The notes: generated by a model not told the origin, from the letters alone. A stretch of 64,000 nt of DNA from a virus (IMGVR_UViG_3300031088_000819); one strand, 5' to 3'. Shown: positions 22,038 through 61,615, numbered from the stretch's first letter. Numbers and translations: made by a program.

Positions 22038-22850
22038 TTGAGTGCTGCCAAATACCACATAAGCCCTAAAGTGGGCGTGGCTCTCTGCAGAGCAAAGGAA
22101 CGGAAATGCAGATATGGGGAAGCCAGCGAGCACTATAGCTCCGCAGAGGAAGCCCTTGCGGCCTATGAGAAGCAGCAATCCGCCTCTCTCTTCCCCGAGC
22201 CAAGCAGCAGGAAAGAGCTCTGGGGAGAAGTTGGAGAAGATGGATGGCTCACAGATGAGTCCGCCCAGAAAGCTCTTCCCCACGGAGTGTACTGCCCCAG
22301 CTGCAATCAGACGCCATCTCTAGAAAACTGCCAACAGCTATTGTTGAATGATTATGCAACATGTAGCTGTGGGAAATGGTATGACATTGGAGAGGCGAAG
22401 GTTGAGCTGCTTCCAGACAACCCATCCCACAAATTCCTAAAGCCAGAGGCGGTCTACGAAGCAACTTGGTATCACGCTACTTGGAAAGATAATTGGCTTG
22501 AAACCAATGATGATGGGGATGAATCCTTCAGCATCCACGTGGGAACGGAACAGGCCTCCTATGATCGTGGAATTGGCGAATATGTGAGCAGGGTGCCAAA
22601 ACACGACGGCGAGTTCTATCTCTATGAGGTGAGAGTGAAACCCGAAGCGCCGATAGCTAAGGACATAGCGGATGATGACAATGGGGTTGAGGCGGAAGAC
22701 GGTGAAGTGGTCCGCTACATAAACCGCTGGGAGGACATGGCCTCTATCTCGTTGGCAGTTCCTTCTGACAAGGTGGAGATCGTCTCTAAGAAGGTCGTGG
22801 GTGGAGCCAAGGCGAAGACTCGGATTTCGCTCTACAATGTGCGGCCATAG
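22038..22850 (+). CDS. member 1 of a paralog family with an N-terminal Cys-Cys-His module
   Basis: N-terminal KYHISPKVGVALCRAKERKCRYGEASEHY..AYE. Probable TTG start. The C-terminal domain resembles that of 37279-38016. Confidence 0.5.
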   Translation: MSAAKYHISPKVGVALCRAKERKCRYGEASEHYSSAEEALAAYEKQQSASLFPEPSSRKELWGEVGEDGWLTDESAQKALPHGVYCPSCNQTPSLENCQQLLLNDYATCSCGKWYDIGEAKVELLPDNPSHKFLKPEAVYEATWYHATWKDNWLETNDDGDESFSIHVGTEQASYDRGIGEYVSRVPKHDGEFYLYEVRVKPEAPIAKDIADDDNGVEAEDGEVVRYINRWEDMASISLAVPSDKVEIVSKKVVGGAKAKTRISLYNVRP

Positions 22851-22994
22851 GTAGCTGCTTAGTCCCTCGCCAATGCGTATAGATTGCGATCTGAGTGACT
22901 TTTGCCCGTGATTGCCACAACCCTATTAGCTGAGCATTCTGTCGTCTTAGATCGCCGCCATTGCCTTTCCGCTATCTTTGTGTAGCATAGTGCT

Positions 22995-23285
22995 ATGGCC
23001 ATATTAGATGTAGACACAGCTGACAAAGAGCTGCTCGAAGCCGATTGCGATCTCGAAGATCTCTTCGGCGATAGGCTCGCCTGTGAGCAAAAGGACCACG
23101 ATGTGGACAGCGCTCACCACGATGTGGGTGCTCCTGCCACGGTGCGGGGCTATGCGCCTTGTGGCGACACCATGAACATCTGCGCAAAGTTCGCAAAGGC
23201 CTATCTCAATGACGGATGGCGAGTTGTAAGCTGCGAATGTGGCGCACGCCATCTCAGCAGCCAGTTCCGCTTCATAGCGATCTAA
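22995..23285 (+). CDS. small Cys-rich protein
   Basis: TAGCAT, N6, ATG. 96 aa. Confidence 0.45.
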   Translation: MAILDVDTADKELLEADCDLEDLFGDRLACEQKDHDVDSAHHDVGAPATVRGYAPCGDTMNICAKFAKAYLNDGWRVVSCECGARHLSSQFRFIAI

Positions 23286-23480
23286 GGAGAGCCATTGTGG
23301 ATGATCTCGTAAGGAGAATGCTTGAGCTCGCCTGGCAGCAGAAAATAGACAGTGGGCTCATTGCCCACTTGGACTTTCCCACTCCAGTAATAGATTCTGA
23401 TTTGGGCGGCGAAGAGTAGCTGCACAGATTCTCCGTGTGAGCATTTTGCCCTCGGGCGCAGCGTGGTGTATGGTAAATCC

Positions 23481-23864
23481 ATGCGCACCACCAAGCAGAT
23501 GAGCAGCAAGGATAAGACTCTTCTCTCTCGGGCGTCTGAGCTCGCATCCCACTCCAGTGAAAAGTACCGCCACGGTGCTATCATCACCCGCGGAGGTAAG
23601 ACGCTGGCCATCGGCATCAACAGGGCCATCAACAATCCCAACCACGTCACTGACCCTAAGACCGGCGCCTCTATCCATGCCGAAATCGCTGCTCTCAACG
23701 CTTGCCGCAAGTCCAATCTCGAGGGCGCTACGATCTACGTGGCTCGCATCCTCAAGGATGGCTCCCCGGCCATGAGCAAGCCCTGTCTGCGGTGCCAGAA
23801 GGCTCTCCGCAAGGCTGGCATCAAGAAGGTTTTCTACACCATCGACTCGGAGCTGGAGCTCTGA
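23481..23864 (+). CDS. dCMP/cytidine deaminase
   Basis: Zinc-binding HAEIAAL and PCLRCQKAL (H-A-E ... P-C-x-x-C) motifs. Start could be GTG at 23463. Confidence 0.8.
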   Translation: MRTTKQMSSKDKTLLSRASELASHSSEKYRHGAIITRGGKTLAIGINRAINNPNHVTDPKTGASIHAEIAALNACRKSNLEGATIYVARILKDGSPAMSKPCLRCQKALRKAGIKKVFYTIDSELEL

Positions 23865-24060
23865 GTTGTGGTCAACTATCCATCATAGGTGATACAATCT
23901 AACTATGAGTCCGCGGATTGGGCTCGTGATTTCAGTGCTCCTGCGCAGCATTGAGCTAAATCGAAAGCTACTTGGTAGACAGCCGCCATCCATTTTTGTT
24001 GAGCTATTTGAAACATGGATAGTCTAGGCGCAGGTTGGCTGTTCAAGATTTGATTTCAAC

Positions 24061-24999
24061 ATGGCAAAAAACAACAAACTCAAGCGAAGTGCCCAGCTCT
24101 TTTCCAAGGAGTATGGCCTCCCCTATCTCGCCTCTTTGAGAGCTGTGGACGAGCCGCTCCATGGCCTCCGAGACTACCTCTCCGTTGGCTCAGCTTTGAA
24201 AAGCTCAATCTCTAGGGGCCACTTCCAGGTCGTTGGGTCTAAAAGCATCTACGCTAGGGGCTTCGAAGTTCCATTTCATCCCGCCGGTGGCAGAGGCTAC
24301 AGAGGATTCATCAAAGAGCAAGATCTAACCCACTACTCCACAGACGGCGACTTCTTCAGAGACCTAGCTCGAAGAGTTTCCCTATTAGAGCGCTATGGCG
24401 CCAAGGATATATGGCACTATAGGACTCTCAGACGGGCTGGAATGCTTCCAGAATCTGCAGATGAACTTGAGCCATTCTTCGACCACTACGGATTCCATAG
24501 CTCTCGTCTAGAGGGATCCCTCTGGGGAGAAACCATGCGCGTGGGTATCTATGGAGTCAGTCTAAGCTCCTATCTTGAATCAGCTCCCGGTTCGACACTT
24601 CTTCCCCTAGAAATCAGCCAGCATGAGCTGCTCATTGCTGGCAAGAACCCCGATGGAGCTCTGAGCCGATTCTTGGAGCACTACAATAGCCAAAGAGAAC
24701 TATTGGAAGACAGAGGAAGCGCCTATAGCCATCTCGCCACATCCCAGCCGAGTTCAGCTTTCTATCCCGGCTCAAATGTCCCTCGCCTTCTGGTGCTTTT
24801 CAGGGAAGGGGAAAATGCCAATGGAAAGTCCCCCGAGGAGAGACTGGAATCTCTGGGGCTAAATCCGAATAGCTTTAGAACGGAGAGATTCTCCAAGAAC
24901 GAAAAGGCTGAAACTGCGCTCGTGAGGGGAGTGGCCACTCTAAGGGTTAATGGAGCTGTCGTCCGGCAGGGAGATCCCCTGGGGCTGCTCATAGCTTAG
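24061..24999 (+). CDS. hypothetical protein
   Basis: 312 aa ORF with mid GC. No motif recognised. Confidence 0.5.
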   Translation: MAKNNKLKRSAQLFSKEYGLPYLASLRAVDEPLHGLRDYLSVGSALKSSISRGHFQVVGSKSIYARGFEVPFHPAGGRGYRGFIKEQDLTHYSTDGDFFRDLARRVSLLERYGAKDIWHYRTLRRAGMLPESADELEPFFDHYGFHSSRLEGSLWGETMRVGIYGVSLSSYLESAPGSTLLPLEISQHELLIAGKNPDGALSRFLEHYNSQRELLEDRGSAYSHLATSQPSSAFYPGSNVPRLLVLFREGENANGKSPEERLESLGLNPNSFRTERFSKNEKAETALVRGVATLRVNGAVVRQGDPLGLLIA

Positions 25000-25068
25000 A
25001 GCTCTAAACCAGGAAGTGTGGCCATTGTTAGAACAGTTGCCACACTTTTCCGCTTCCAAGGAGCTCCC

Positions 25069-25701
25069 ATGGCCAAGTGGCACTACAACCCGGAGACGGG
25101 CGACACCGGCAGATGCCGCGCTGTCTACAAGTGCAGATATGAGCTCTCCGAAGATGAGCACTACGGCTCCGCCCGGGAGGCCTCTCGGGCCTACGAGGAG
25201 CACCAGTCGGCAGCTGTTTTCAAGACTGTAAGCAAGCTGCCGGACTACCCCCAGGTGAGCGAGCCCCGAATAGCTGCAGAGAAGAGTTCTAATAGCTACC
25301 ACTATCAGGAGCTCTGGCTGAGAGATGAGAATGGGAAGCCTGCGGCCTATGTGAAGGTCAATAGGCTCACCTGGGGTGAGCTCGCCGATGGGTCCTATGG
25401 CTACAAGCCGGGAATAGTTGTCTGTGACATCGAGATCAGCCCCGACCACCGGGGCCAGAACTACGCTCTAGCTGCCATACGGAAGCTCCAGGAATCCAAT
25501 GGTGGAGAGCCCGTGGAGTTCACCGGTACTTTTTCGGAAGCTGGCTACAGGATGTACCAGCGGTTGGAGAAGCTGGGCCAAGAGGCGGGAACTCCCCTGG
25601 TGAAGATCTCCCACGGTGAGCGACTCAAAGAGCCAAGCCCTGGAGAAGAGTACAGCTTCGTGGACGATTGGGCAGAAGAGCGGGGCAAGTATCAGCTCTG
25701 A
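25069..25701 (+). CDS. Cys-Cys-His module fused to a GNAT acetyltransferase-like domain
   Basis: N-terminal KWHYNPETGDTGRCRAVYKCRYELSEDEHY..AYE. C-terminal VCDIEISPDHRGQNYALAAIRKL resembles GNAT motif A. SD AAGGAG. Confidence 0.55.
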   Translation: MAKWHYNPETGDTGRCRAVYKCRYELSEDEHYGSAREASRAYEEHQSAAVFKTVSKLPDYPQVSEPRIAAEKSSNSYHYQELWLRDENGKPAAYVKVNRLTWGELADGSYGYKPGIVVCDIEISPDHRGQNYALAAIRKLQESNGGEPVEFTGTFSEAGYRMYQRLEKLGQEAGTPLVKISHGERLKEPSPGEEYSFVDDWAEERGKYQL

Positions 25702-25702
25702 G

Positions 25703-25768
25703 TTGCATGGCTTGGCTGCTTGGTGTACTGTAGAACTACACCAACCAAACACGATCCTAGAAGGAATC
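25703..25768 (+). promoter_or_regulatory. sigma70-like promoter with CA-rich leader
   Basis: TTGCAT, N17, TACTGT at 25726-25731, then GAACTACACCAACCAAACAC leader and SD GAAGGAA. Confidence 0.55.
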
Positions 25769-26197
25769 ATGAAGATCACTGTTGCTAACACTGTCGAGGC
25801 TGTCAACATTGTTAAGAACGATGATGGCACTGTGAGCATCGAGCTCAAGGGCGTGGACGCTGTCCGAGCTGAGGTGAAGCAGATCGCAAAGAAGCCCGCT
25901 GGCGGCATCAAGCTCATTCACAGTGGAGTTCGAGGCATTCCCGTGCTCTCCCGGGCCCAGAACGAGAAGATCACAGCCAGCAAGTGTGGCGTTCCCTTCA
26001 TGGACAGCAAGCTTCGACAGAAGCTCATTGAGAACGGCGCCCCCATGCTCGTTCGCGTCAATGTCTCTGATGCTAATATGTATACCAGCCAGAAGTCCGC
26101 TGCGAAGCACGGCATTCAGCTTCGCTTTGAGGCCACTCACAAGATTGAGGGAGACACCAACGCTCGAGGTAACGTCTACGCTGAGCTCGTCTGGTAG
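25769..26197 (+). CDS. hypothetical protein, probably strongly expressed
   Basis: 142 aa ORF framed by a consensus promoter and a strong terminator. Confidence 0.55.
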   Translation: MKITVANTVEAVNIVKNDDGTVSIELKGVDAVRAEVKQIAKKPAGGIKLIHSGVRGIPVLSRAQNEKITASKCGVPFMDSKLRQKLIENGAPMLVRVNVSDANMYTSQKSAAKHGIQLRFEATHKIEGDTNARGNVYAELVW

Positions 26198-26207
26198 AAA
26201 GCACTAT

Positions 26208-26241
26208 AAGAGGGGCGCCGCTGCGGCGCCCCCTCTTATTA
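26208..26241 (+). terminator. intrinsic terminator
   Basis: AAGAGGGGCGCCG ctgc GGCGCCCCCTCTT, a perfect 13 bp stem, followed by ATTAGC. Confidence 0.7.
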
Positions 26242-26585
26242 GCATGAGCCAATGTTTTGAAGTCTAAAAGCAGTCTAGCAATGTTGTAGATGGCGATCTA
26301 TATGCCCTATGGTAGCCTTAGCAGCACGAGACAAATGAATAACATCATGGAGATTTTCTAGCGCCTCCTAGATGTTTTCAGCATCGAGAAATTTCTCCTC
26401 GCTTGAGAAAATCTCATTTATCTTCCCCTGGCTATCGCAGCATCTTTGTAGTTCACTATAGATTTGGTTCAATGTGGTGTAATTCTGGTTCAATATGGCG
26501 CATTATGCGACCATCTTCTAATCCGTGTATGCAAACAGAACTCGCTTTGATATAGCTATTGTCTTTATTTTATAGCGAGGTTAGC

Positions 26586-27863
26586 ATGGACACCACATTT
26601 ACCATCATTGAAGAAAATAAATCTACCATTGCTGGACTAGGTGATTTACAGCTCACAATAGAATTAGGTATTCCCTATTACTTGCCGTCACACCGGGGTG
26701 ACTATCAGGGCCTCTGGAATCTTCTAGAGGAATTCGAAACCTTAGTGCTAAGCACCAAGAGAAACGAACTCTTAGAAAAAGAGAGAAATTTTTTGAGAGA
26801 GGCCAAGTCCAAGGGTTTCGTGGTGGTATTAGCTGGTCCAAGTCCATTCTTTTGGGAAAAGGGTGACGGAGAACTAATAGATCACAAAATATCTCTGGAT
26901 CCATTCCAAGAACAAGATCACTCACCACAGAGAGATGTGGCTTTCTTTTTCGAAGGATCAGGTTTAAAGTCTGATTTCCATAGAAGAGATGTCCAAGTTA
27001 CCATCTCTATATCTAAATTTCTGATTTCCTCTATGCGCAAATCTAAGAGTGAGATCGAAGAGGCTTCCTACGAAATTACTAAATATTTCCCCACAAGCGG
27101 GAAACTTTATATTTCAGAAATTGACTCCATACCTAATTGGCTTATTTTACAACTTTTGAAAGAACTTGAAAGTAAAAATACATCACTTGTGATCCTAAAT
27201 GAAAATCGAAAGATCACAGCAAAGGAATTGGAAGAATTCAGAAATGAGATTAAGCGAAGATGGAGAGATAATCTTCCCAGACAAGTGATTGTTTTAGATC
27301 CAGAGGGCAATAGAGCTAGTAAATTAAAAGGCGCGATAGACGCAGCTAGTAGCTATGAAAATCGATCTGGTCATGTAGATGTAGATTACTACAAGGGTGG
27401 AGATGAAATCGGCTGGAAATGGGAAGGTGCCTTTGAAAAAGCTAGAAACACTCCTAATGTTTTTCTAGTTGTTGAAGATGGCTCAGTTCTTCAACGTAGA
27501 GCAATGGATATACGAAAATATCTCAGTGAAATAGAAGCACTTGGTGGAGGTCTGTCCTTTGCCCACCAATCTAATGCGCTTTTTCACCATTTGGGAGCAG
27601 GATTTTACATTCTAGCAGATGAACCTCTAGCTAAGCTTGTAGAGCATCTTAAAGTAGATTCCTATCTCGACGAAATGAGCCTACAGACTCCCGTAAACCA
27701 AAGCGCCCTTTCAGAATATTCCCAAAATGTCGCTGTCAAACTGAAAGAACAAGGGAAAACTATTCAAGAGACATCGAAGATCATGGGAGTCAATAAATCA
27801 ACCATAAGCCGTTGGTTTAAAACGCTAAGAGGTCAACAAAGCAACCACGAAGATGAAAACTGA
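26586..27863 (+). CDS. protein with a C-terminal helix-turn-helix, in the low-GC island
   Basis: C-terminal KTIQETSKIMGVNKSTISRWFK is a resolvase/transposase-type HTH. Paralogous to 28633-29280. AT-rich codon usage. Confidence 0.55.
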   Translation: MDTTFTIIEENKSTIAGLGDLQLTIELGIPYYLPSHRGDYQGLWNLLEEFETLVLSTKRNELLEKERNFLREAKSKGFVVVLAGPSPFFWEKGDGELIDHKISLDPFQEQDHSPQRDVAFFFEGSGLKSDFHRRDVQVTISISKFLISSMRKSKSEIEEASYEITKYFPTSGKLYISEIDSIPNWLILQLLKELESKNTSLVILNENRKITAKELEEFRNEIKRRWRDNLPRQVIVLDPEGNRASKLKGAIDAASSYENRSGHVDVDYYKGGDEIGWKWEGAFEKARNTPNVFLVVEDGSVLQRRAMDIRKYLSEIEALGGGLSFAHQSNALFHHLGAGFYILADEPLAKLVEHLKVDSYLDEMSLQTPVNQSALSEYSQNVAVKLKEQGKTIQETSKIMGVNKSTISRWFKTLRGQQSNHEDEN

Positions 27864-27930
27864 TAGCTCCAATAACAGATAAACAAACAATTCACAGCTG
27901 TCCGAAATGCTCTCAATATAAGGAAATACT

Positions 27931-28377
27931 ATGAAAAGTAAGAAGAAACCTATGAGCCAATTTGTGGCATCGACACTGATGGATCTGGATGAACTGATAC
28001 TACGGCCACATTCGGGTTGGGTAGACGGAGCAGGCGTCCTCAACGAAGTTGACTGGTTCAGCACCGATGAACACAAAGCGAACAAGGAGAAAGGTCTATC
28101 CCACTCCTACAAGGAACCGTTCAGATCGAGAGGCTACCAAATAGCTCAGAGCCTGTCAGACAGCTCCTGGTGGGGAATCCGCTGGAACGATGCCTATGAG
28201 TTCATCAGCGAACACAAGGGGAAAGAAGCCGCAGCAAAGTTCGTTGAGATCAGGTTGGATCTAGCCGACAGGCAAGGCTGGTCTGGATATGGCCGGGACG
28301 GAGAGAGGCGACCACGAATAACTGTGTTTAGCGCTCCAAACATCGTCGTGCCTACGGAGGATGATGAAAAATCCTAA
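27931..28377 (+). CDS. hypothetical protein
   Basis: 148 aa. SD AAGGAAATA upstream. Confidence 0.45.
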   Translation: MKSKKKPMSQFVASTLMDLDELILRPHSGWVDGAGVLNEVDWFSTDEHKANKEKGLSHSYKEPFRSRGYQIAQSLSDSSWWGIRWNDAYEFISEHKGKEAAAKFVEIRLDLADRQGWSGYGRDGERRPRITVFSAPNIVVPTEDDEKS

Positions 28378-28392
28378 ACTAGTGCTATAAAA

Positions 28393-28424
28393 ATAGCCCC
28401 GAGCTTCAGCTCGGGGCTATTTAG
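28393..28424 (+). terminator. intrinsic terminator
   Basis: ATAGCCCCGAGC ttca GCTCGGGGCTAT stem followed by TTAGTG. Confidence 0.6.
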
Positions 28425-28632
28425 TGATGCCAATAACAGAATATTTATCTTTGAAATTAACTAAAAATTCAAAAGTTTGCTAACATTCCCACTTATGAGT
28501 ATCTAGATGCAAAATCTTATTTCGATTGATCTAAGGAACAAGATATTCTATGTCCTATTTTTAGCAATAGTTGCTTTGATATGGTAATTGATCGTTCCGG
28601 AAATTCCACGATCTTATTACATGGAGTAATTT

Positions 28633-29280
28633 ATGTCCAATCAAAGAACATACGCCCTAGTAGTAGATAGCCAAGAAGAACTTCAAAGATTTATAGGTCT
28701 TAGAGGTATCATAAGTGATGCTGAAGGCATGAGCGGAATAAGAAATTTAGATACTCTACAAGCTCAAGGCAATTTCAAAATCTACGGTGAACTCGAAGAA
28801 GATTCTTTCGGTAAGAAACGCAGTGGTACCAATATAGCAGAAGCCATCAAATATGTAACCACTCATCGCAATAGTGTCCTAGGAGTCACCTCTATTGAAC
28901 AAATTTCTAACAATATCCAAACTATTGTAGAAATACTGCAAGACATCCATGCAGCAGGAAGCGGAATCGTAATTAGATTTTCCTCCAGGGGCCTAGAGTT
29001 GAAATTTAGTCAGAGCGGTGAATACAATGGTTGGATCTGGATTGGTCAGGCTCTAGCCGATTTCATCGAACAAGTAAAGATTGCTGCCTACTTCGATGAG
29101 ATGTTCCACCCAAGTGCTTGGGCTAAGATTCCTAATTCTAAAATGTATCAGGTTTGGGATCAGATCAGTGCTGAAAAGAGCAATGCAGCTGTGTCTAGAG
29201 CTACCGGCATTTCAGAAAAAACAGTAGCTAAGCTAAGGCGCCGATTCAAAAATTTGGAAACCATCTATCGGAATAGATGA
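28633..29280 (+). CDS. protein with a C-terminal helix-turn-helix, paralog of 26586-27863
   Basis: C-terminal AAVSRATGISEKTVAKLRRRFK is an HTH. Shared block LA(K/D)..E..K..(S/A)Y(L/F)DEM. AT-rich. Confidence 0.55.
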   Translation: MSNQRTYALVVDSQEELQRFIGLRGIISDAEGMSGIRNLDTLQAQGNFKIYGELEEDSFGKKRSGTNIAEAIKYVTTHRNSVLGVTSIEQISNNIQTIVEILQDIHAAGSGIVIRFSSRGLELKFSQSGEYNGWIWIGQALADFIEQVKIAAYFDEMFHPSAWAKIPNSKMYQVWDQISAEKSNAAVSRATGISEKTVAKLRRRFKNLETIYRNR

Positions 29281-30881
29281 TGGTGCTAACACAAAGAAAA
29301 GAGTCCGCCAATAGCGATGCTGAATTAGTGGCGGTGGACTCCGCTACGGCTCTATCTTTTCTAGAAGAGCACTCCACCTCGGACAAAGATAGGCCAGGCA
29401 GCAATCTACGAAGCTGGGGCATAGAGGGGAATGGACAGCTCTTAGCAGTAATAGCAATCTGTAATCCTCGCACCCTAGAGCTTCAGAAAAGCTATACAAC
29501 TGAGCTCTATGGACTAGCTGTCTCAAATCAAAAGGCCAGTGGAGAGCTGATCAACTCTCTCATGAGCATAGCGATGGAATCAGGCATTCCAGACCTTTTC
29601 ATCCAAGGAGAACGAGCAAAAGAATATGGACAATACGGATTCGAGCGATCAACTGTTAGCAGTGATAATTCTGAGAGCTCAATCTATCATTGGCGTGATC
29701 CCTCAGTTCGATTTTACACCTACAAAATCACTAGCTCAAAGGGCAAAGGTTACTACATAGGCCGCCACAGAACAAGCCTGGAAACCATCGAAGAAATGGT
29801 CACCGATGGCTACATGGGCAGTGGGGGAGTGAAGTATAAAAACTGGATAGCCTCAGTTGGCGAAGAGACACTCTCCAAGGAAATTACAGGAGTCTATGGC
29901 ACTTGGAAGGAAGTAGTAGCTGCAGAAGAACAGCTCATCGGAAATCTCTATAAAACAGACAGCAATTGTAAGAACAGCAAACCGGGAGGCATAGGGCTTA
30001 CCAGCTATATGCCTGCATACACTATAGATTTTTGTCCCATACATGGGAAAACGAAGTTCAGAGGAAGGTGCCATAAATGCACAGTAGGTGATGCCCAGTC
30101 TCTGAAGGAATGCACTATACATGGACTCGTACTACATCGTGGTGATTCTTGTTTTACCTGCGTTAGAAGCAAAACTAACACTAAAAAGGAATGTTTAGTT
30201 CATGGTTTAGCTATCCACTATGGTGACACTTGTTCAAACTGCGCTAGCGCAGCAGCTAAACAGCTAGCAGAGTGCGAAATTCATGGATTTGTCATTCACC
30301 AGGGTAGCTCTTGTGCAACATGCGTAGCTGAAAAATCTGTTTCCCTTAAAATTTGCGCCATCCATGGAGAGACCAAGCATGTTGGCCAACACTGTCGTAA
30401 ATGTCTTAATGGCAGCGTAATAACTGAAAGCAATTGTCCCATTCATGGTCTAACCTCTTTCAAGGGCGAGAGCTGCGTCAAGTGCTCTGCAGCAAAGAGT
30501 TGGGCTATCTTTGAGTGTCCTATCCACGGTCAGACCAAACATCGAGGCAACAGCTGTGAAAAATGCACTCAGCAACAACGAGCTGCAGAGCAAAGAGCCC
30601 TTGAAGTGGTTCAAAGCTGCGCCACGCATGGCGAAACCGCTTTTCTCAAAGGTGAGTGCAAGCGCTGCGTAGCTCAAAAGAAAATATCCCTGAAGAAGTG
30701 CCCCACTCACGGGAAAACCAAACACACGGGGAATACTTGTGGAAAGTGTCTGGTGGCAAAGGTATGGACCACCGAAGAGTGCTCCATCCACGGTCTAGTT
30801 AAGCACCGCTCTGGCAAGTGTCAAAAGTGTGCTGCTCTCGCTAGCTGGGCAAAGCGCAAAGCCAAGGCGAAGGTAGATTAG
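29277..30881 (+). CDS. GIY-YIG-like domain protein with ~9-12 tandem zinc-ribbon repeats
   Basis: FYTYKITSSKGKGYYIGRH resembles a GIY-YIG nuclease motif. It is followed by a tandem array of C-x-x-HG-x3-(H/F)-x4-C-x-x-C units (~18 aa each). ATGA overlap with the upstream gene. AT-rich. Confidence 0.6.
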   Translation: MMVLTQRKESANSDAELVAVDSATALSFLEEHSTSDKDRPGSNLRSWGIEGNGQLLAVIAICNPRTLELQKSYTTELYGLAVSNQKASGELINSLMSIAMESGIPDLFIQGERAKEYGQYGFERSTVSSDNSESSIYHWRDPSVRFYTYKITSSKGKGYYIGRHRTSLETIEEMVTDGYMGSGGVKYKNWIASVGEETLSKEITGVYGTWKEVVAAEEQLIGNLYKTDSNCKNSKPGGIGLTSYMPAYTIDFCPIHGKTKFRGRCHKCTVGDAQSLKECTIHGLVLHRGDSCFTCVRSKTNTKKECLVHGLAIHYGDTCSNCASAAAKQLAECEIHGFVIHQGSSCATCVAEKSVSLKICAIHGETKHVGQHCRKCLNGSVITESNCPIHGLTSFKGESCVKCSAAKSWAIFECPIHGQTKHRGNSCEKCTQQQRAAEQRALEVVQSCATHGETAFLKGECKRCVAQKKISLKKCPTHGKTKHTGNTCGKCLVAKVWTTEECSIHGLVKHRSGKCQKCAALASWAKRKAKAKVD

Positions 30882-30943
30882 TTCCGTGATCTTCGTTAGA
30901 ATGGTTCTGTCTCATTGAACACTAACTAGAGGGGCTGGTAACC

Positions 30944-32035: not shown

Positions 32036-32036
32036 A

Positions 32037-51952: not shown

Positions 51953-52192
51953 ATGGCAATGCGAGGCGCTTACATCGGTGAAGCACACATAGAGAACCGA
52001 GGCATGGTTCGGGTCTACCAGGATCTGGACAACAGCCAGTTCTTCTTCTGTGACCTGAAGCACAGAGACCAAAGCCTCTATGTGGCTCGGAGCCGAGTGA
52101 AGTTCCGCAAAGTCCAGGGGAAGCTCCCTAGGATCCCTTCCCCCAAGAAAGCTGCTCCAACCTTTGAGCAGCCCACGCTCTTCGACTTCTAA
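51953..52192 (+). CDS. hypothetical protein
   Basis: TATCAT, N6, ATG. Confidence 0.4.
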   Translation: MAMRGAYIGEAHIENRGMVRVYQDLDNSQFFFCDLKHRDQSLYVARSRVKFRKVQGKLPRIPSPKKAAPTFEQPTLFDF

Positions 52193-52205
52193 GGACTACG
52201 AGAAC

Positions 52206-52526: not shown

Positions 52527-52532
52527 AACGCC

Positions 52533-53006
52533 ATGAATCGAGCAGAGAGAAGATCTAAGCTGAAGAAAGCCAGGGGCTACGCTAAGAGCGAAAAGACCCA
52601 GGAGCTCCCCCTCCGCAGAGAAATAGGGGATCAGGTTATCTACGATTTTGGGAATCTTTCGGAAGATGATCTAGAGCTTCCTCCCAGCTCGGGCACCCAG
52701 GAGCTAGGCGGACTGCTCGTCGATGGAGGGGCTGCCATCAGCGACGACTACCCTCGGCCCAAGGGTAGAACCATAGCTATAGCGGCCAAAGGCGGAGAAG
52801 AGGCATTTAGGGCACTGCGTTACGGTAAAGATCCCGATGGTATCGCCAATAGCGGTGATGAGGCCATCGCGCTAGCTCGTAAGCTTTTGCCCAATGATTT
52901 CACATTTAGCCATTTGGATTTCACCACCCATAGCTACCTCGATAGCTTCAATGAGAAGGTCACCTGTGGTTGGTCAGTGCTATTCCACAGCTCAGCCGGG
53001 GCCTAG
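52533..53006 (+). CDS. hypothetical protein
   Basis: 157 aa. Confidence 0.45.
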   Translation: MNRAERRSKLKKARGYAKSEKTQELPLRREIGDQVIYDFGNLSEDDLELPPSSGTQELGGLLVDGGAAISDDYPRPKGRTIAIAAKGGEEAFRALRYGKDPDGIANSGDEAIALARKLLPNDFTFSHLDFTTHSYLDSFNEKVTCGWSVLFHSSAGA

Positions 53007-53051
53007 CCCAAGCTATTGACTTCTGGTATCTACTTTCATTAGGATAGGATC

Positions 53052-53303
53052 ATGGCATCTAAAAAGACAATCGAAGCTCTAGAAAACCTCCGAGAGGCGC
53101 TCACTGCTGCTGGGCCCCGGCTGACTCCTCAGGAGTTCTGGGACCACGCTGGCCATCTCCCCACGAAGGTGGAGGAGGAGCTCAGGGCTCGGCTCTACAT
53201 CGAGCGGCGCCACGAGCAGGATAGGGCAAGGGCCTCAGAGCCATGGGATCGAAAGATCTCCGTTCCGCTGGTGTTGGAAAAGCTCGAAGAGGAACTTCTC
53301 TGA
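53052..53303 (+). CDS. hypothetical protein
   Basis: TAGGAT, N6, ATG. Confidence 0.45.
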   Translation: MASKKTIEALENLREALTAAGPRLTPQEFWDHAGHLPTKVEEELRARLYIERRHEQDRARASEPWDRKISVPLVLEKLEEELL

Positions 53304-53377
53304 ATAGAGCCAGGGCGCACTCCGCTTTCGTTTAGAAAAGCATGAGTCTTATCATCTGCTAGAAATCGGAGGACTCC

Positions 53378-54694
53378 ATGGGTGCAGGACAGGGCTACAA
53401 TCCCTACAGGGATGGCAATGGCAAGTTCACATCCCCTGAGAATGTGGGCAAAAAGGTGGAGAGCGACTACCAGGAGGCCCTGGAGCAAGGTGATGAGCTA
53501 AGGGCCAGCTCCATCGAAAACTACGCCATGGAGAAGATGCCAGAATCTGAAATTGGCCGCAGGATTTTGGAGCAGAAGTATGGTGTTACTGCGGACCAGA
53601 GGAAGCCAGTAGCCAAAGCTTCCAGGGATCGCAATGACATCCTCAGGGACTATGAAGCCACAGCTAACAACCCCGGCCTACACCAGTATGGCTTCCCCGA
53701 GGATGAGCTCGTCCGCCACAATGTGGGCGAGAAGCTCAATGGCTACAAAAAAGAGCTCGAAGAGTCCCTCAAGGACACAGAGCTAGAAGGCCATGGTGGC
53801 TTCGTTGCCCACAGCCTCACAATCACTCCCCGGGACCGCCGCGAGGCAATCGAAGAACTCTCCGCCAAAGAGGTAGAGCTCAATATAGACTCCTCCTCAT
53901 CGCCGAGCTCTTGGAAAGCAGTGATGGGTGACAGGCGAAAAACCGCTAAGGCAAGATCAGAGTACCGGAGCGCCATTGCGGGCGCCCTGGCTTCCTCCCA
54001 AGGGGAAAAGGTAGATGAGCTAGCCAAAGAAAAGGCCCAATTCAATGCCTTTAGCCGCACAATCGAAGGCAGAGAAACGCTGCCCGAGCCCTACCAGAAG
54101 GCATTCCAGGAGATCTGGGATGGAGATGGCTACGGAAGCAAGGCCCACACCGAAAAGGCGCTCAAGAGAACATGGGATCTCTCCAAGAAGCTCAAGGATG
54201 GAGAAATCGCTCCGTCAAAGATAGTGGGAACTGGCTACAAGGATAGCCGCAAAGCAGCTGAAGACTACCTCAGGAAAGAGGATGAGAGACTTTCGAGGGA
54301 CCTCAACACCAATGGAACCTCCAATGCTGAAAATGTCAGAAAGGTTCTCAAAAAGGCTAAGAAGGAAGGCTGGCCTTTGAGTGATGGAAAGCTCCCCACT
54401 GATCTAAAGCAGCGGCCTCCCCGAAGGCTCACCGAAAGGGAAAAAGTGGCTGAAAACTACGGCCACTTGTCCGTAGATGAGCTCCACGGCATCCAGAGAG
54501 TCCACATCGATGACTACAACAGGATCAAGAAGGAACTCGACGCCGCCGGCGAAGTATACCGCTCGGGCAAAACCAACTCCCAGGAAGCCCGGAAGAAGGT
54601 AGAGGATCTCGCCCGCAGGAAAGTCGCTGTGCTCGAAACCATAAACAGCTTTGGGCATCTCATCGACTCCAAAGACGGCACGATTCGCAGCTGA
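53378..54694 (+). CDS. Lys/Glu-rich hypothetical protein (438 aa)
   Basis: SD GGAGGA upstream. Highly charged, low-complexity segments. Confidence 0.55.
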   Translation: MGAGQGYNPYRDGNGKFTSPENVGKKVESDYQEALEQGDELRASSIENYAMEKMPESEIGRRILEQKYGVTADQRKPVAKASRDRNDILRDYEATANNPGLHQYGFPEDELVRHNVGEKLNGYKKELEESLKDTELEGHGGFVAHSLTITPRDRREAIEELSAKEVELNIDSSSSPSSWKAVMGDRRKTAKARSEYRSAIAGALASSQGEKVDELAKEKAQFNAFSRTIEGRETLPEPYQKAFQEIWDGDGYGSKAHTEKALKRTWDLSKKLKDGEIAPSKIVGTGYKDSRKAAEDYLRKEDERLSRDLNTNGTSNAENVRKVLKKAKKEGWPLSDGKLPTDLKQRPPRRLTEREKVAENYGHLSVDELHGIQRVHIDDYNRIKKELDAAGEVYRSGKTNSQEARKKVEDLARRKVAVLETINSFGHLIDSKDGTIRS

Positions 54695-54725
54695 TCTCCG
54701 AAGAGCCATTAGCCGCCAATCGGAA

Positions 54726-54772
54726 AAGGGCCACAATCTCGACAGTGTTGGAGATTGTGGCCCTTCGCTTTG
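54726..54772 (+). terminator. intrinsic terminator
   Basis: AAGGGCCACAATCTC ... GAGATTGTGGCCCTT, a perfect 15 bp stem, followed by CGCTTTGGG. Confidence 0.7.
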
Positions 54773-54834
54773 GGCAAGCAAATCATGGACTGTGTGAGCC
54801 AGCGTAGTTGATCCTCTAGGGGCCTTCGTGTAAT

Positions 54835-55500
54835 GTGACTATCATGGATCCAAGCTATGACCCCTTCGGGGAGGACTCTAGCTTTCCCGATTCTAGCACC
54901 GTCGGGGAAGAGACTCGATTCAGCAGTGGACAGGTGCTCAAAAATGTCCACAGAGCGGAGAACTGCCACCAGGAGCACTGCCCCATCCACAATCCATCCC
55001 AGCACAAGCTGCGGAATCTTCCACTGGCTCTCCTGGGTGAGGTCATGGTGAGAATCGGAGGGGAAGCTCCAGATGTAGCTGTTGGGGTAGTGCTTCCCTG
55101 GTCCGATGATCCTAGGCCTCGCAAGATCTATCTGGATCCCGACGACTATCATTTCAAGACCCATGAGGTCTCCTACGCGCGCCATTCGAGCTATTGTGGC
55201 CGCTGCGAAAGCCATGTGGTCTACATGTGGAATAGGATCTACGATGGAGAAGTTTCCTGTATCTGTGGCAATGTCAACTATGGTTGGGATAGCGAACCAT
55301 CTGTTAGTGACGAAAACCAATATTGGGATACGTCTATCTACTGGGTGAATGATAATTGGTGGAAATCAGAAAATGATCGGATCGCTAGCCAAGCATTGGA
55401 TCTATTGAGATCCATCCATTCGAGGGGTGGGGTCGCTAAGACCCCAAATGTCAGCGTTCTCAAAGAACTTCTAAGAAAAACATCTGGAGAAAAAACCTAA
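54835..55500 (+). CDS. Cys/His-rich hypothetical protein
   Basis: NCHQEHCPIH plus several CxxC pairs. Confidence 0.5.
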   Translation: MTIMDPSYDPFGEDSSFPDSSTVGEETRFSSGQVLKNVHRAENCHQEHCPIHNPSQHKLRNLPLALLGEVMVRIGGEAPDVAVGVVLPWSDDPRPRKIYLDPDDYHFKTHEVSYARHSSYCGRCESHVVYMWNRIYDGEVSCICGNVNYGWDSEPSVSDENQYWDTSIYWVNDNWWKSENDRIASQALDLLRSIHSRGGVAKTPNVSVLKELLRKTSGEKT

Positions 55501-55649
55501 TTGGATTGCTTCAGCTAAAAGCGCTCTAAACCTATGCTGCTTTCAACGCATTGGAAACGCCCGATGGTGCTAAAATCATGCTTTCTGCACGATGGGTCTT
55601 CTTTTAGATAGAATCCTAGATAGCCAATAAAAATCTAGGAGAAGAATCC

Positions 55650-56291
55650 ATGGCCAAGGCGCAGTTTCATCTAACCCCCAAGGGACCCGAGCGATGCCGC
55701 GTGGATAGCTCCAATCCTCGAAGCACGGGTTGCAAATATGGCGCTACGGGTCATTTCCCCGACGCCCCCACTGCACTGGGCAACTACGCCAAGCTCAATA
55801 GGGTGGACCCCCAAGAGCTTGCAGCTCTAGTCAAGGATGGAGCTCAGCCCCGGGATGCCATTGACCTCATCCGCCAGGGCTACGGCAGTGGCCACGTGGA
55901 AGCCCTGAGGAGAGCTGAAGAGCCACAGCGGAGCTACGAGGATGCCCTTGCAGAGCACATGGACTCCCGCCACCAGGCGCTCATCGAGCTCCGGGAAAAG
56001 ATCACCCCCGAACTACAAATCAGCATCAAGGGAACCTCCCAAGAGCCCGAAATCTCTGTGGCCGCTATGGACCCCTCGAGGCTCCAGCGCTTCGCCTATG
56101 TGGTGAGAGAGAACCCCCAGGGTGGAGTAATGGTGCTCGAAGATTCTAAAATAAAGCTGGGCACCAGCCTCGAAGAGCTCCAGCGCACCATCACCAAAAG
56201 CCCAGAGCTTAAATCCAGCTTCGAAGCCATGCTCAGAACTTCTCGGACAATGCTCCGGGAGGAGGAAAACGGATCGGTCATCGAAGACTGA
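55650..56291 (+). CDS. member of the paralog family with an N-terminal Cys-Cys-His module
   Basis: MAKAQFHLTPKGPERCRVDSSNPRSTGCKYGATGHF. SD AGGAGAAG upstream. Confidence 0.5.
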   Translation: MAKAQFHLTPKGPERCRVDSSNPRSTGCKYGATGHFPDAPTALGNYAKLNRVDPQELAALVKDGAQPRDAIDLIRQGYGSGHVEALRRAEEPQRSYEDALAEHMDSRHQALIELREKITPELQISIKGTSQEPEISVAAMDPSRLQRFAYVVRENPQGGVMVLEDSKIKLGTSLEELQRTITKSPELKSSFEAMLRTSRTMLREEENGSVIED

Positions 56292-56336
56292 GAAGCCACC
56301 GGCGGGAATCGCCAGTAGAAGATAGGAATAGGGTAG

Positions 56337-56831
56337 ATGAGACTTCAGAAAACCAACGCAGTAGGCCACATGGCAAGAGCGGGGTTTAGGCTCAGCTGTT
56401 CGGCCGCTGTCCACAGGGAATCCCATGGCCAAGCCCATGGAGGAACAGCCCCTGCAGCGCCTCTAGCGGAAGAGCCAGACCTCCAGGCGGAATACCGCTA
56501 TGCTTTAGACTGCTATCAGGATGCTAAAACCCTTGCTCTGATTTCTCTCTGGGAAACCTATCCTCAGATCTCCATTGAAACAGCAAAGCGTAAAGGTAGA
56601 GTGAGAGCCAAGTTCTCTTTGGATGACGAGAGCTCCGAAGACATGAGCTTTGAGGTTAGCCTCACCTCTTCGGGGAAGCTCGCCTTTAGCGAAGTGCCAG
56701 AAGCCATGGAAAACCTGGCGAAAGGTCTTCGCGGCGTAGATGGTGAGCTCGTAGAGAATGTTATCTCCATGCTTAAAGCTGCTGAAGTGATGATTCATCT
56801 AGAGGAGATAGGCGTTCCCGACAGGGGATAG
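56337..56831 (+). CDS. hypothetical protein
   Basis: 164 aa. Start uncertain (alternative ATG at 56370). Confidence 0.4.
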   Translation: MRLQKTNAVGHMARAGFRLSCSAAVHRESHGQAHGGTAPAAPLAEEPDLQAEYRYALDCYQDAKTLALISLWETYPQISIETAKRKGRVRAKFSLDDESSEDMSFEVSLTSSGKLAFSEVPEAMENLAKGLRGVDGELVENVISMLKAAEVMIHLEEIGVPDRG

Positions 56832-56850
56832 CTACCAAGATAAAAGAGTG

Positions 56851-56990
56851 GCTTTGGTTCTGGATTCGCGTCTGTCGCATCATCCATGGGAAACATGCAT
56901 AGCTCAGCCAATCATGGTTTTCAGCCCTGGAGATTCGATCTGAAGATGCGCTGAGAGGGCGCTTCTAGCGTTGGCGCTGAGAATGCGATT
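56851..56990 (+). repeat. copy D of the ~130 bp intergenic element (diverged)
   Basis: GGATTCGCGTCTGTCGCATCATC ... GCATAGC ... GAGATTCGATCTGAAGATGCGCTGAGAGGGCGCTTCTAGCGTTGGCGCTGAGAATGCG. Confidence 0.65.
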
Positions 56991-57036
56991 CTCAGCCATG
57001 GAGATCTAACGATAGGGCACAAAATCCTTCCTCGAG

Positions 57037-57312
57037 TTGCCTCCACAGCTCCAAAGCAATATGATTGGAATCATGACACGCATTACCAACAACCTCACTC
57101 CCGCCCAGCTCGCAGAGCAGCTCTTCATCGAAGAGATGACGGAGGATGGTCACAGCGCCCAGTGGGCCGCTCAAGCATGGGCGGACATGACCTTCCCCGC
57201 AGATGATTGGTCCGATGAGGCACTCGAATACCTCTGGGAAGCCGAGGACATCCTCGAGGGTCGAGCTGAGCGAAGCACTCCCCAGACCAAGCCCGTTTCC
57301 TTCTACAGCTGA
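57037..57312 (+). CDS. hypothetical protein (start uncertain)
   Basis: ORF from the track, immediately downstream of repeat copy D. Confidence 0.35.
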   Translation: MPPQLQSNMIGIMTRITNNLTPAQLAEQLFIEEMTEDGHSAQWAAQAWADMTFPADDWSDEALEYLWEAEDILEGRAERSTPQTKPVSFYS

Positions 57313-57372
57313 CCCCTGGTCGATAGACCAACCAAAAGCTGCTAACAGTTCATTCCAGGAGGAGCGATTTCC

Positions 57373-57525
57373 ATGGACATTATCTATCTGATTGTGCTCT
57401 TTAGTGTCGCTGCAGTCCTAGGGTGGATCGGCATTTCTTCCGCTTCAAGGAAGAGAGCTAAGGCGCCTGACTCCTTGGACTGGGAGCTGGAACAAAGGGC
57501 AATACGCGAAGAAAGGAGACGCTGA
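57373..57525 (+). CDS. small membrane protein (50 aa)
   Basis: Strong SD CAGGAGGAG upstream. One TM helix plus a basic tail. Not in the ORF track because it is under 60 aa. Confidence 0.4.
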   Translation: MDIIYLIVLFSVAAVLGWIGISSASRKRAKAPDSLDWELEQRAIREERRR

Positions 57526-57527
57526 CT

Positions 57528-58151
57528 GTGACGAATGAGAATCTCCGGGGACTTCGCAGGGAGCTCCGTAAGCTCATCGGAGAAACACAGTCAACGGACT
57601 CCACGATGGACATCGTCTATAGCCTCATAGATGAACTCACCAGAAAGCCCACTCCCGTAGATGTAGAACTTGTGAGAACCTGTTCTGCTTGTCCAGAGCA
57701 ATACGATCTCTTCAGGGAAGGCCGACAGATCGGCTATCTAAGGCTGAGGCACGGCCGCTACACGGTGGCTTATCCGGACCATCTTGGGCAAACCGTCCAT
57801 GAGGCTTACACTCATGGCGACGGCTCCTTCGAGATCCATGAAAGGGCAGAGCACATTTTCGAAGGCGTGGTTGCCGCCCTCGAAGCTGACGGAGTGGAAA
57901 ATCCCAGTCCCAACTACGAGATTCCCGCCCTCGAAGAAGATGAGCCATGGGACTCAGGATTCCTCGAAGAGCTCGTTGAGCGAGCTAAAGCCCAGAAGGA
58001 AGAGCGCAGCCGCCAGCAGCGCCAACAGATACGCCAGCAGGTTTCGGAAATCCTAGGAGACCTAGGGCTCGACCCGGCTCTCACCCAGAGGGCTATCGCA
58101 GCCCTCGAAGATGGTGAGCTCCTAGCCACAGAGCCTCGGAATGGCATCTGA
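57528..58151 (+). CDS. hypothetical acidic protein
   Basis: 207 aa. Confidence 0.5.
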   Translation: MTNENLRGLRRELRKLIGETQSTDSTMDIVYSLIDELTRKPTPVDVELVRTCSACPEQYDLFREGRQIGYLRLRHGRYTVAYPDHLGQTVHEAYTHGDGSFEIHERAEHIFEGVVAALEADGVENPSPNYEIPALEEDEPWDSGFLEELVERAKAQKEERSRQQRQQIRQQVSEILGDLGLDPALTQRAIAALEDGELLATEPRNGI

Positions 58152-58266
58152 ACTCTAGCTCTTACCGCCGGGCACCTGTTTCAGCCGCACCCTCTTTGGA
58201 GAGAATGTTAGGATGCTTCCAACAGTTCTAGGGCAACCACCTAGGGCGTGAACCGAAAGGCACTCC

Positions 58267-58527
58267 ATGGCGACCACAGAGGATTTTACGGGCACTCAGA
58301 ATGCCAACGCAAAGCTGCTCTTTAGGTTTTCGGTGATTCTGGGACTCCTGGGCTTTGCGCGAGCCATTCTCGGCGCTTGGCAGATCGGTTTGGGGCCCGA
58401 CAAGCTCCACGAGATCATCTTTTTCGCGGGACTAGCAGTCCTCTCTTTGGCGCTCGTGGCCTTTTCCCGCAGGGAGCTCAAGCTCATTGCCGCCGACGAA
58501 GAATTCCTCCCCGTTTTGAAGCCCTAG
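58267..58527 (+). CDS. small membrane protein
   Basis: Two TM helices. Confidence 0.45.
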   Translation: MATTEDFTGTQNANAKLLFRFSVILGLLGFARAILGAWQIGLGPDKLHEIIFFAGLAVLSLALVAFSRRELKLIAADEEFLPVLKP

Positions 58528-58534
58528 CCAACCA

Positions 58535-59239
58535 ATGCTCATTTTCCAACCTCAAACGCTTCCCGGCAGCAGCCGCAGGCTCCAAAAGGCCAGCCGTGAA
58601 GAGTTCGAACGAGAGCTTCCGCCATGGCGCTTCAAAGAGCATCAGATCAAATCGGGTCTCTACGATCCCAGCTTCTCTCTGAAGTTTCCCGGAGCTTGGA
58701 GCAGGGACGCCATCCTCGAAGCGACCTATCTAGCGCCGAGCTACGGATTGCCTCTGGATGAGGTTACCCAAGATCTGTTAGATCGAGCTGCCCATAGGTG
58801 CTTTTCAGAGCTTTCCGCAGGTGGAGGAACAGGTTATCTGAAGGCCGTAGATGGCCAATGGCATAGCCAGCCTTTGGAGTCTCTCTGGAAGATGGCCAAT
58901 GAGCTTTTTCTTGAACATCGCCAGAGAAAGTTTCGGCTCATCATAGCTGCTACAGAATCCCCCATTGACTTGCTCTTGGATAGGTCCCTGCTCTATGATG
59001 GCAATCTCACCCTTGAGAAGCTCACCGGTGATCTCTTCTCCAACTACGTGGTTCCCGTGAGCCTTTCGGGGAGCCTCTGGAGTAGAGCTCGACTCAAGGG
59101 CCAACAGAGGAAAGCCATGAAGCACTTTGATAGGTTAGCGAAATCCATATTTGAGGATAGCCGTAGACGGTTGGAGCTTTTGAGCGCTATCCAGGAAAAC
59201 CACCCTAAAACCGACGCGGCAGCTCTCACCGCGATATGA
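58535..59239 (+). CDS. hypothetical protein
   Basis: 234 aa. Confidence 0.5.
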   Translation: MLIFQPQTLPGSSRRLQKASREEFERELPPWRFKEHQIKSGLYDPSFSLKFPGAWSRDAILEATYLAPSYGLPLDEVTQDLLDRAAHRCFSELSAGGGTGYLKAVDGQWHSQPLESLWKMANELFLEHRQRKFRLIIAATESPIDLLLDRSLLYDGNLTLEKLTGDLFSNYVVPVSLSGSLWSRARLKGQQRKAMKHFDRLAKSIFEDSRRRLELLSAIQENHPKTDAAALTAI

Positions 59240-59272
59240 TTTACTTAGAGCCCACTTAGTGAGGAAGACACA

Positions 59273-59521
59273 ATGGTCCACATCGACGAACTGACTCTAG
59301 CCAACGCTCTTGAAGCTCTCGAAGAGTCGGGGTTTAAGCTCTATACGAACTCTAGCCACGCCCTAGAGGTGGGACGAGATGGGATGATCTATCAGGCCCT
59401 CATCCTGGAGACGGGCGAATGGAGGGTTTCCGCCATCGAGCGGGATACCAACGTCACACAGGAAAGCCGCGTGCTCCCCGAAGAGGGCGAAGTGGCCAAG
59501 TGGCTGCTGAAGCTACTTTAA
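59273..59521 (+). CDS. hypothetical protein
   Basis: SD GAGGAAG upstream. Confidence 0.45.
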   Translation: MVHIDELTLANALEALEESGFKLYTNSSHALEVGRDGMIYQALILETGEWRVSAIERDTNVTQESRVLPEEGEVAKWLLKLL

Positions 59522-59627
59522 ATCTGCTCAGATTGCCCGCCTGTTGCGCTTAGCTGTGTAGCTTAGTGATTTCCGCGTGTTAGATAATCTTATAAGATTT
59601 TTACCATAATGAGCAGCGGAGATTCCC

Positions 59628-60770
59628 ATGGCCACTAGATACCACATCAGCGATAACGGCATGCCCGGCAAGTGTAGCGCGGCATCTCCGGAGTCCTGCC
59701 CTAAGACCCAAGCGGGGGACTCTTTTCACGGTACTCTCGAGGAAGCCAGCAGTGAATCCCAAAGGCGCTTTGAGGAAAAGCTGGGCGGCTTCGTCACCAA
59801 GTCTAAGACTGACGAGCGAGTAGAGGAACAGAACTCTATTCGTGAAAGGCAAAACCAGGCCATACGGCAGGTTGCCAATGATGGTGACGAGATCTATGTC
59901 CACCCCCAGGGGAAAATCATCACCATTGACAGCCGTGGCTATCTATCCGCGTTCAAGGATGGCCGAGAGCTGGGCACATCTGCAACTGCAGAAAAACTCC
60001 GCAAGGGCTATGGCGCATGGAAGCGAGTAGACTACCCCTCTAGCGGCCCTGAAACTCCCAAGAAAGGTGCACTTGAACATCTCGACGTGCTCAATCTCAG
60101 CGAAAAAGAGCTCGAAGATGCACAAAGTAATCTCACGGATCTAACTAAAAAACAGATCGCCTATGACGAGCTCAATGCCGCCAAAGAGGGTAGAGCCTAT
60201 TACTACAACTACAGTGTCCCCTATGGCCAACCAGGCTGGGGAGAAAAAGTCAAAGGAATAAGCCCCAGTGGCCGCGGAACTCGCTATGAATCCACCCCCG
60301 AACAGAAGCAGGAACTTCAGGCGGCAATGGATAGGAGAATAGCGGCTAGCGAAGCTCGGGATAGAGCCCAAACGGAAATGGAAGAAGCAGGCTACGGCCA
60401 TTACATTCCCGAAAGTTTCCCCAACCACTTGGGAGAGAATGGAACTATTCGGGTTCGCACCCAAGCTCAGAAGAGGCTGCTCGAAGATGAACTCAAGGGG
60501 CAGATATCAGATGGCAAATGGGAGAACTCATCCAATACGGGTTGGGCCCAATGGACTTCCGCTAAAGTGGTAGTGGACCCCAAAAATGTGGGTAGAAACT
60601 TCCACGCTATTAAGGACAACTTCCAGCTCAACGCGAAGGATCTCCTCGATGTGGTGGGCGACAGAATGATCGAAAACGTCCGAGAGAAAACTGGCAACAC
60701 TGCCTACAACGAAAGACAGCTCAACGAGGATCTCAAAGATCTTCGAACCATCTTCAAAACCAAGCGGTAA
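59628..60770 (+). CDS. member of the paralog family with an N-terminal Cys-Cys-His module
   Basis: MATRYHISDNGMPGKCSAASPESCPKTQAGDSFHG. SD GGAG upstream. 380 aa. Confidence 0.55.
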   Translation: MATRYHISDNGMPGKCSAASPESCPKTQAGDSFHGTLEEASSESQRRFEEKLGGFVTKSKTDERVEEQNSIRERQNQAIRQVANDGDEIYVHPQGKIITIDSRGYLSAFKDGRELGTSATAEKLRKGYGAWKRVDYPSSGPETPKKGALEHLDVLNLSEKELEDAQSNLTDLTKKQIAYDELNAAKEGRAYYYNYSVPYGQPGWGEKVKGISPSGRGTRYESTPEQKQELQAAMDRRIAASEARDRAQTEMEEAGYGHYIPESFPNHLGENGTIRVRTQAQKRLLEDELKGQISDGKWENSSNTGWAQWTSAKVVVDPKNVGRNFHAIKDNFQLNAKDLLDVVGDRMIENVREKTGNTAYNERQLNEDLKDLRTIFKTKR

Positions 60771-60799
60771 GCTCCAACGATCAAAACAGGAGAAAAATA

Positions 60800-61615
60800 A
60801 TGGCTAAGAGATACCACGTATCCCAGGACGGAGTTTCGCGAGTTTGTGCCGCTAAAACCGTTGAGAGTTGCACAGCTATTGGTGTGGATGGTGAATCAGC
60901 TCCCCACGGAGAGTTTGCTAACGCCAAGGAGGCTTCGCGATTCGCTGAAGCTATCCTAGAGAAAAACTTCGGTGCCGATAGCCTTAGCAGCAAGGCCAAG
61001 CCGGTAGTTTCTGACAGACCTGCCTACACCACCGACATGAGTGACGATTCAGAATACCGGGTAGAGGGTGGTCGCCTAGTGGCCTATGCCGAGGGTGAGG
61101 ACTTCGATCTGGGAGAGCTTCGGGAGATTTCCACAGAGGAAATGAACCGCTGGAGCCAGGAGACTTTTAGCCAAGATGCCAGCTTCCAAGACGGTGAGAT
61201 CTTCCCCGTCTACGATGAGGATGGTGACGAGGCAGGAGCCTTCGCCCGCTTCGGAGATAAGTACTACCGGGCAGGAACTGGCAACAGCTTCTATCAGGTT
61301 GACGGAGAGCCTTCCAGCGCCGATAGTGGCTCTGCACCCCAGGGCCCCCTCGGCACCCCTACCAGCTGGCCTATGGGGAAAGAAGAGTTTGACAGTCGCT
61401 TCGATCAGGGAATGTTCTCTATGGCCTCCGAAGGTGACTCAGCAGATCAGTGGATCATAGAGGAGCGCGATGAAGATCTCATGGCGGAGCTCAAGTCCAT
61501 TGAGGGCCTCCCCTCTGACAAAAGACAGGTGGAGTTCGATGAGATCATGGATGAATGGGGCGGCGGCTATCTTCTCAAGGATGGTAGAACCATTCGCTAC
61601 AAGACTAACAGGTAG
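60800..61615 (+). CDS. member of the paralog family with an N-terminal Cys-Cys-His module
   Basis: MAKRYHVSQDGVSRVCAAKTVESCTAIGVDGESAPHG. SD AGGAG upstream. Acidic C-terminus. Confidence 0.55.
   Translation: MAKRYHVSQDGVSRVCAAKTVESCTAIGVDGESAPHGEFANAKEASRFAEAILEKNFGADSLSSKAKPVVSDRPAYTTDMSDDSEYRVEGGRLVAYAEGEDFDLGELREISTEEMNRWSQETFSQDASFQDGEIFPVYDEDGDEAGAFARFGDKYYRAGTGNSFYQVDGEPSSADSGSAPQGPLGTPTSWPMGKEEFDSRFDQGMFSMASEGDSADQWIIEERDEDLMAELKSIEGLPSDKRQVEFDEIMDEWGGGYLLKDGRTIRYKTNR

Follow-up and report, generated by a model that had tools for sequence, protein, structure and literature searches.

The window analysed here, a stretch of 64,000 nucleotides, is part of a 475.5-kb contig of an uncultivated phage and carries five genes whose products start with the same small module, referred to below as the HCCH module. 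All five ORFs named in the preliminary description are present on the plus strand at the positions listed in Table 1, and a GGAG or GAGG sits 7-10 nt 5' of each of the five starts. For gene 2 the mechanical ORF opens at a GTG at 25018, upstream of the ATG at 25069; the ATG is preferred on account of its ribosome-binding site, the 210 aa homologue P0007 and the gene call on the parent contig.

Table 1. Module genes of the window and their parts (positions in the 64,000 nucleotide stretch).
Feature	Position	Strand	Description
Gene 1	22038-22850	+	TTG start, 270 aa; HCCH module, linker, CPxC..CxC zinc ribbon, predicted ART-fold domain
Gene 1 HCCH module	22038-22193	+	Residues 1-52; H7, C17, C24, H32; canonical subtype; profile E 5.5e-19
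Gene 1 second, internal Cys4 zinc-ribbon-like motif	22293-22370	+	C86, C89, C109, C111; all four invariant (alignment A5)
Gene 1 predicted ART-fold domain	22419-22847	+	About residues 128-270
Gene 2	25069-25701	+	210 aa; HCCH module and GNAT acetyltransferase domain; gene call L007 13032-13664
Gene 2 HCCH module	25069-25221	+	H5, C16, C22, H31; canonical subtype; profile E 3.5e-17; sequence used for modelling
Gene 3	55650-56291	+	213 aa; HCCH module ('NP[RK]SxGC insert' subtype) and C-terminal part; profile E 1.4e-5
Gene 3 HCCH module	55650-55799	+	H6, C16, C28, H35
Gene 4	59628-60770	+	380 aa; HCCH module ('CPKTQAGDxFH' subtype), small domain and C-terminal domain; profile E 3.9e-22
Gene 4 HCCH module	59628-59792	+	H6, C16, C24, H34; alignment A8
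Gene 5	60800-61615	+	271 aa; HCCH module ('CTAxGVDGxxAPHG' subtype) and acidic, mosaic C-terminal part; profile E 7.6e-14
Gene 5 HCCH module	60800-60973	+	H6, C16, C24, H36

The relatedness of the five N-termini, first noticed in the sequence itself, is borne out by two types of profile. With HMMs built by leaving out one member at a time and run against the six-frame translation of the window, the omitted member was the best non-training match each time (E values of 6e-6, 5e-5, 8e-4 and 2e-3, and a weak 1.5 for gene 3), and an independent profile of 123 members from outside the window matched all five ORFs with E values from 3.9e-22 to 1.4e-5. A profile search of the 64 kb found no sixth copy. 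The module is about 45-50 residues long and follows the pattern M-A-[KR]-[YF]-H-[IVL]-x3-G-x4-C-x-A-x3-9-C-x5-11-H-[YF]-x4-E-A-x3-E, with a ligand spacing of H-x8-10-C-x5-7(11)-C-x5-11-H. Among 128-150 members the first histidine and both cysteines are invariant and the second histidine is present in at least 90%; in gene 1 all four residues are unchanged across an alignment of 19 orthologues. The earlier count of two cysteines and one histidine has to be corrected, the pattern holding two conserved histidines, of which the first lies at residue 4-7 (in 145 of 149 and 158 of 163 proteins). Likewise, gene 2 reads H-Y-N in place of the proposed consensus H-[IVL]-[ST], and the 'EA..AY' helix motif ascribed to all five proteins is missing from gene 3, where the C-C spacer measures 11 residues. 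The module helix ends in a conserved [A/S/Y]-x-E sequence, with the E in 86%; it is not taken as evidence for cleavage. The module starts at residue 1-4 in 147 of 149 representative clusters. Four subtypes, each with different and highly conserved loops, occur in the window, that of gene 3 being found also in P0054, P0095 and P0110. Family members include eight stand-alone modules in proteins of 80 aa or less, and tandem arrangements of two to three modules (P0014, P0027, P0085 and P0086).

Compared as DNA, the modules of the window are about 50% identical and their longest shared word is 10 nt or less, so that the conservation is at the protein level. This comparison largely refutes the idea that the shared 5' segment is a DNA-level device, either a recombination or gene-capture cassette or a translational leader, whose peptide would have little function of its own. 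The mosaic C-termini, the shuffling of module subtypes relative to payload modules and the arrangement of genes in tandem arrays would suit such a device, but no upstream motif shared by the module genes was significantly enriched. Since the H, C, C and H residues are invariant in hundreds of proteins from many genomes, selection acts on the protein, and a DNA-level device appears very improbable indeed.

As in the preliminary description, the module is not recognised as a named domain: no model in Pfam-A 2025, NCBIfam 20.0 or PHROGs v4 covers residues 1-55 in any of the five window proteins or of 300 relatives. Scans of bare modules against family profiles yielded nothing relevant up to an E value of 10, and neither sequence-profile nor fold comparison gave a significant match to a solved structure in the PDB. 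The module is a previously unnamed family and, judged from its sequence, a putative new small zinc-binding fold, which merits an entry in domain databases. The suggestion of a small metal-binding fold was sound in that the fold is real and recurrent; metal binding is probable from the conserved H-C-C-H, with its invariant H, C and C, and the four ligands would coordinate one Zn2+ holding the mini-domain together. The gene 2 module is modelled by AlphaFold (AF2) as a beta-hairpin plus a helix (pLDDT 83; strands 3-6 and 13-16, helix 35-54). With the first ligand histidine only 3-6 residues from the N-terminus, the free end would be tucked into the fold.

The C-terminal parts, or payloads, are mutually unrelated, as first noted, and fall into five different BLAST clusters in the window. 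The GNAT assignment for gene 2 was confirmed by a match to PF00583 over residues 74-142 (E 2.3e-4, 21.8 bits against a gathering cutoff of 20.7). In gene 1 the 'WYHAT domain' of the preliminary description is indeed a distinct C-terminal domain, though its identity is another: it is predicted by modelling to be a new, divergent member of the ADP-ribosyltransferase (ART) fold with conserved H...Y...E-type positions. Invariant in it are H146 (WYHAT), Y196-E197 (FYLYE) and R226, Y227, N229 and E232 (RYINRWED); among ART folds it resembles KptA and DarT, and it has neither a Pfam match nor a tblastn match in GenBank phages. The module thus exposes new divergent payloads, such as this domain, missed by every sequence profile. 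For the C-terminal part of gene 3, family searches (Pfam, PHROGs) gave no match. Gene 4 has in its middle a small conserved 'VHPQGK..AFKDGKE..TSAT' domain (alignment A8), followed by a C-terminal domain which matches phrog_24869 and is similar to the stand-alone, 123 aa gp666 of Bacillus phage G (39% identity, E 3e-11). As this payload occurs module-free in another jumbo phage, handle and cargo are separable. In gene 5, small C-terminal modules are shuffled among 26 relatives (alignment A7).

Over the whole family, 303 distinct proteins yielded 193 unrelated C-terminal clusters (a set of 148 proteins gave 99), and within an array each adjoining gene bears a different payload. The C-terminal regions are mosaic, and payload modules and module subtypes have been shuffled against each other. 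The proteins have a median length of 267 aa and usually one recognisable payload, although only about 15% of payloads can be identified. These comprise ADP-ribosyltransferases, GNAT, RNA and DNA ligases, CCA-adding enzymes, nucleases, 2H, HD and HAD hydrolases, one M78 peptidase, ArdC-N and TelA. Payloads related to nucleic acids are Rnl1 (two), RNA_ligase, LigA (a complete NAD-dependent DNA ligase), PolyA_pol/CCA (two), RNase_T, an Rv2179c-like exoribonuclease, MvaI/BcnI, GmrSD_C (two), YqaJ, 2H-SAK, HD and ArdC-N; one payload named 'Zeta toxin' may be a PNK-like kinase. Domains of the polyvalent or injected type fused to the module are ART-PolyVal (two), LPD18, LPD29, ArdC-N, an Alt-like ART and M78, and the vocabulary extends to a zincin/M78-type peptidase, a Pol-beta-type NTase and, weakly, PBECR2.

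Several of these payloads, namely the ARTs and nucleases, are potentially toxic, and together with the tucked N-terminus they would fit a regulatory or protective cap, that is, a zinc- or redox-sensitive N-terminal domain with an autoinhibitory or stabilising role. We consider such a cap improbable. The same low probability covers its variants, in which the N-terminus would be shielded from host proteases or N-degron pathways or toxic enzymes would be kept inactive until a trigger. In the full-length model of the gene 1 product the module is not packed on the catalytic domain, a disordered linker (pLDDT <50) lying between the two; benign payloads exist (LigA, the CCA enzyme), as do tandem and stand-alone forms, and the existence of subtypes with their own conserved loops points to specific recognition and not to capping in general.

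Many of the identified payloads act on nucleic acids, that of gene 1 resembles KptA and DarT, and arrays of two to three modules and lone modules are typical of binding fingers. All this is consistent with a small nucleic-acid-binding zinc finger that would tether the enzyme to its substrate, be it tRNA or RNA ends, nicked or injected DNA or the phage genome. The composition of the module speaks against this: it is neutral to acidic (mean net charge -1, sd 2), with strongly conserved glutamate in the helix and few conserved basic positions, which favours a protein partner over nucleic acid. Moreover, profile searches found no similarity to known nucleic-acid-binding fingers, GNAT, TelA, the M78 peptidase and the protein-type ARTs have no need of nucleic acid, and the strict placement at residue 1 is left unexplained. 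A nucleic-acid-binding finger is therefore unlikely in our view, though less so than a cap.

An exhaustive HMMER scan retrieved 2,077 representative clusters, and in essentially all of them the module begins at residue 1. The long contigs among its carriers measure 220-828 kb. None of 50,697 GenBank phage records contains it, and it is all but missing from the 185,579 species genomes of bacteria and archaea; the family is restricted almost entirely to very large uncultivated phages. In related loci, dispersed copies and tandem arrays reach a density of up to 12 module genes per 20 kb. The genes sit amid replication, nucleotide-metabolism and auxiliary genes, and among 140 neighbouring ORFs the most frequent Pfam families included no recognisable virion genes.

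These data bear on the earlier reading of the family as a polymorphic, effector-like one. The architecture of one N-terminus with many C-termini stands, and is more extreme than first described, and the likeness to effector families is supported by the payload vocabulary (ART-PolyVal, Alt-like ART, LPD18, LPD29, ArdC-N, M78). Pure toxin delivery fits poorly, since repair-type payloads, stand-alone and tandem modules and the replication-gene neighbourhood do not agree with it, nor would one readily class a complete LigA-type ligase, Rnl1 or CCA-adding enzymes as 'injected effectors'.

The best explanation, to which we give an even chance, is that the zinc-held module is a portable protein-docking or address handle taking diverse enzymes to a shared, phage-specified partner or site. 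Gathered there, the enzymes would act on the ends of RNA and DNA in repair or processing, or would modify host macromolecules by ADP-ribosylation, acetylation or proteolysis. The destination could be the procapsid, with loading and co-injection as an enzymatic 'starter kit', in the manner of the leader that targets T4 internal proteins and Alt to the capsid, or an intracellular hub such as a replication and repair factory or compartment; the two are about equally probable. More than one partner or loading class is suggested by the four subtypes with distinct, highly conserved loops. Stand-alone and tandem modules are odd for a mere address tag, and the identified payloads include so many nucleic-acid enzymes that a finger binding their substrates would fit as well. 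More tentatively, and with the chances against it, the module may be the address tag of a megaphage-specific protein sorting system, by which dozens of enzymes would be loaded into the giant capsid for co-injection or else imported into, or recruited to, a phage-built intracellular compartment, with the subtypes as sorting classes.

Metagenomes are the only source of phages of 0.4-0.8 Mb, and the majority of the genes in such phages defy interpretation. For these phages the module is a simple sequence marker of a large set of accessory proteins (five in the 64-kb window, up to 12 in 20 kb, about 2,000 clusters). Should the module serve as an address or docking tag, the cargo list of a megaphage sorting or delivery route, with hundreds of payloads across the clade, could be read from sequence, and which proteins of uncultivated phages act together, where and when would become a testable question.

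A close parallel is in T4, where the capsid-targeting sequence (CTS) of IPI-III and Alt, some 10-20 residues long and free of Cys and His, is cut off as a leader by the prohead protease. In T4 as here, unrelated proteins have a conserved element at the very N-terminus in common, on the logic that one address serves many cargos; these proteins include an ADP-ribosyltransferase and are encoded partly in variable gene clusters, in T-even phages the polymorphic ip locus. There is no sequence similarity between the two, and in contrast to the CTS the HCCH module is a folded unit of 45-50 residues, with a far larger cargo set that includes ligases and RNA-repair enzymes. MuF, LXG, Rhs and CDI polymorphic toxins likewise combine a constant N-terminus with highly variable enzymatic C-termini (ARTs, nucleases and, in the toxins, deaminase-like domains). 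However, none of 300 members scanned against Pfam has a MuF, LXG or Rhs domain, immunity genes are not evident, many payloads are of repair or housekeeping type, and the carriers are lytic-looking megaphages rather than temperate phages as for MuF toxins.

Towards classical beta-beta-alpha C2H2 fingers the likeness is that of a small hairpin plus helix with two Cys and two His; the module differs in its H-C-C-H order, long spacers, lack of a CxxC knuckle and about twofold size (C2H2: C-x2-4-C...H-x3-5-H), and C2H2 profiles did not match it. In Bacillus phage G a lineage-specific expansion of a zinc ribbon, about 35 copies, has been described as a possible transcription factor or DNA-binding protein (Iyer et al. 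2021, PMC7824862). It shares with the present family the massive multiplication of a small zinc-chelating (here putative) module in a phage of about 500 kb, but the HCCH module is an N-terminal fusion partner of enzymes with H-C-C-H residues, and two module sequences had no tblastn match in the phage G genome at E<=10. In polyvalent proteins a single giant polypeptide combines 2-15 effector domains (Iyer et al. 2017, PMC5512222), and none of the zinc-related terms looked for in that paper led to an HCCH-like module. Their vocabulary overlaps with ours (ART-PolyVal, LPD18, LPD29, ArdC-N, zincin/M78-type peptidase, Pol-beta-type NTase and weakly PBECR2), whereas here the payloads are carried by separate small proteins, each with its own handle. 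The domain is new, and the architectural principle is a known one.

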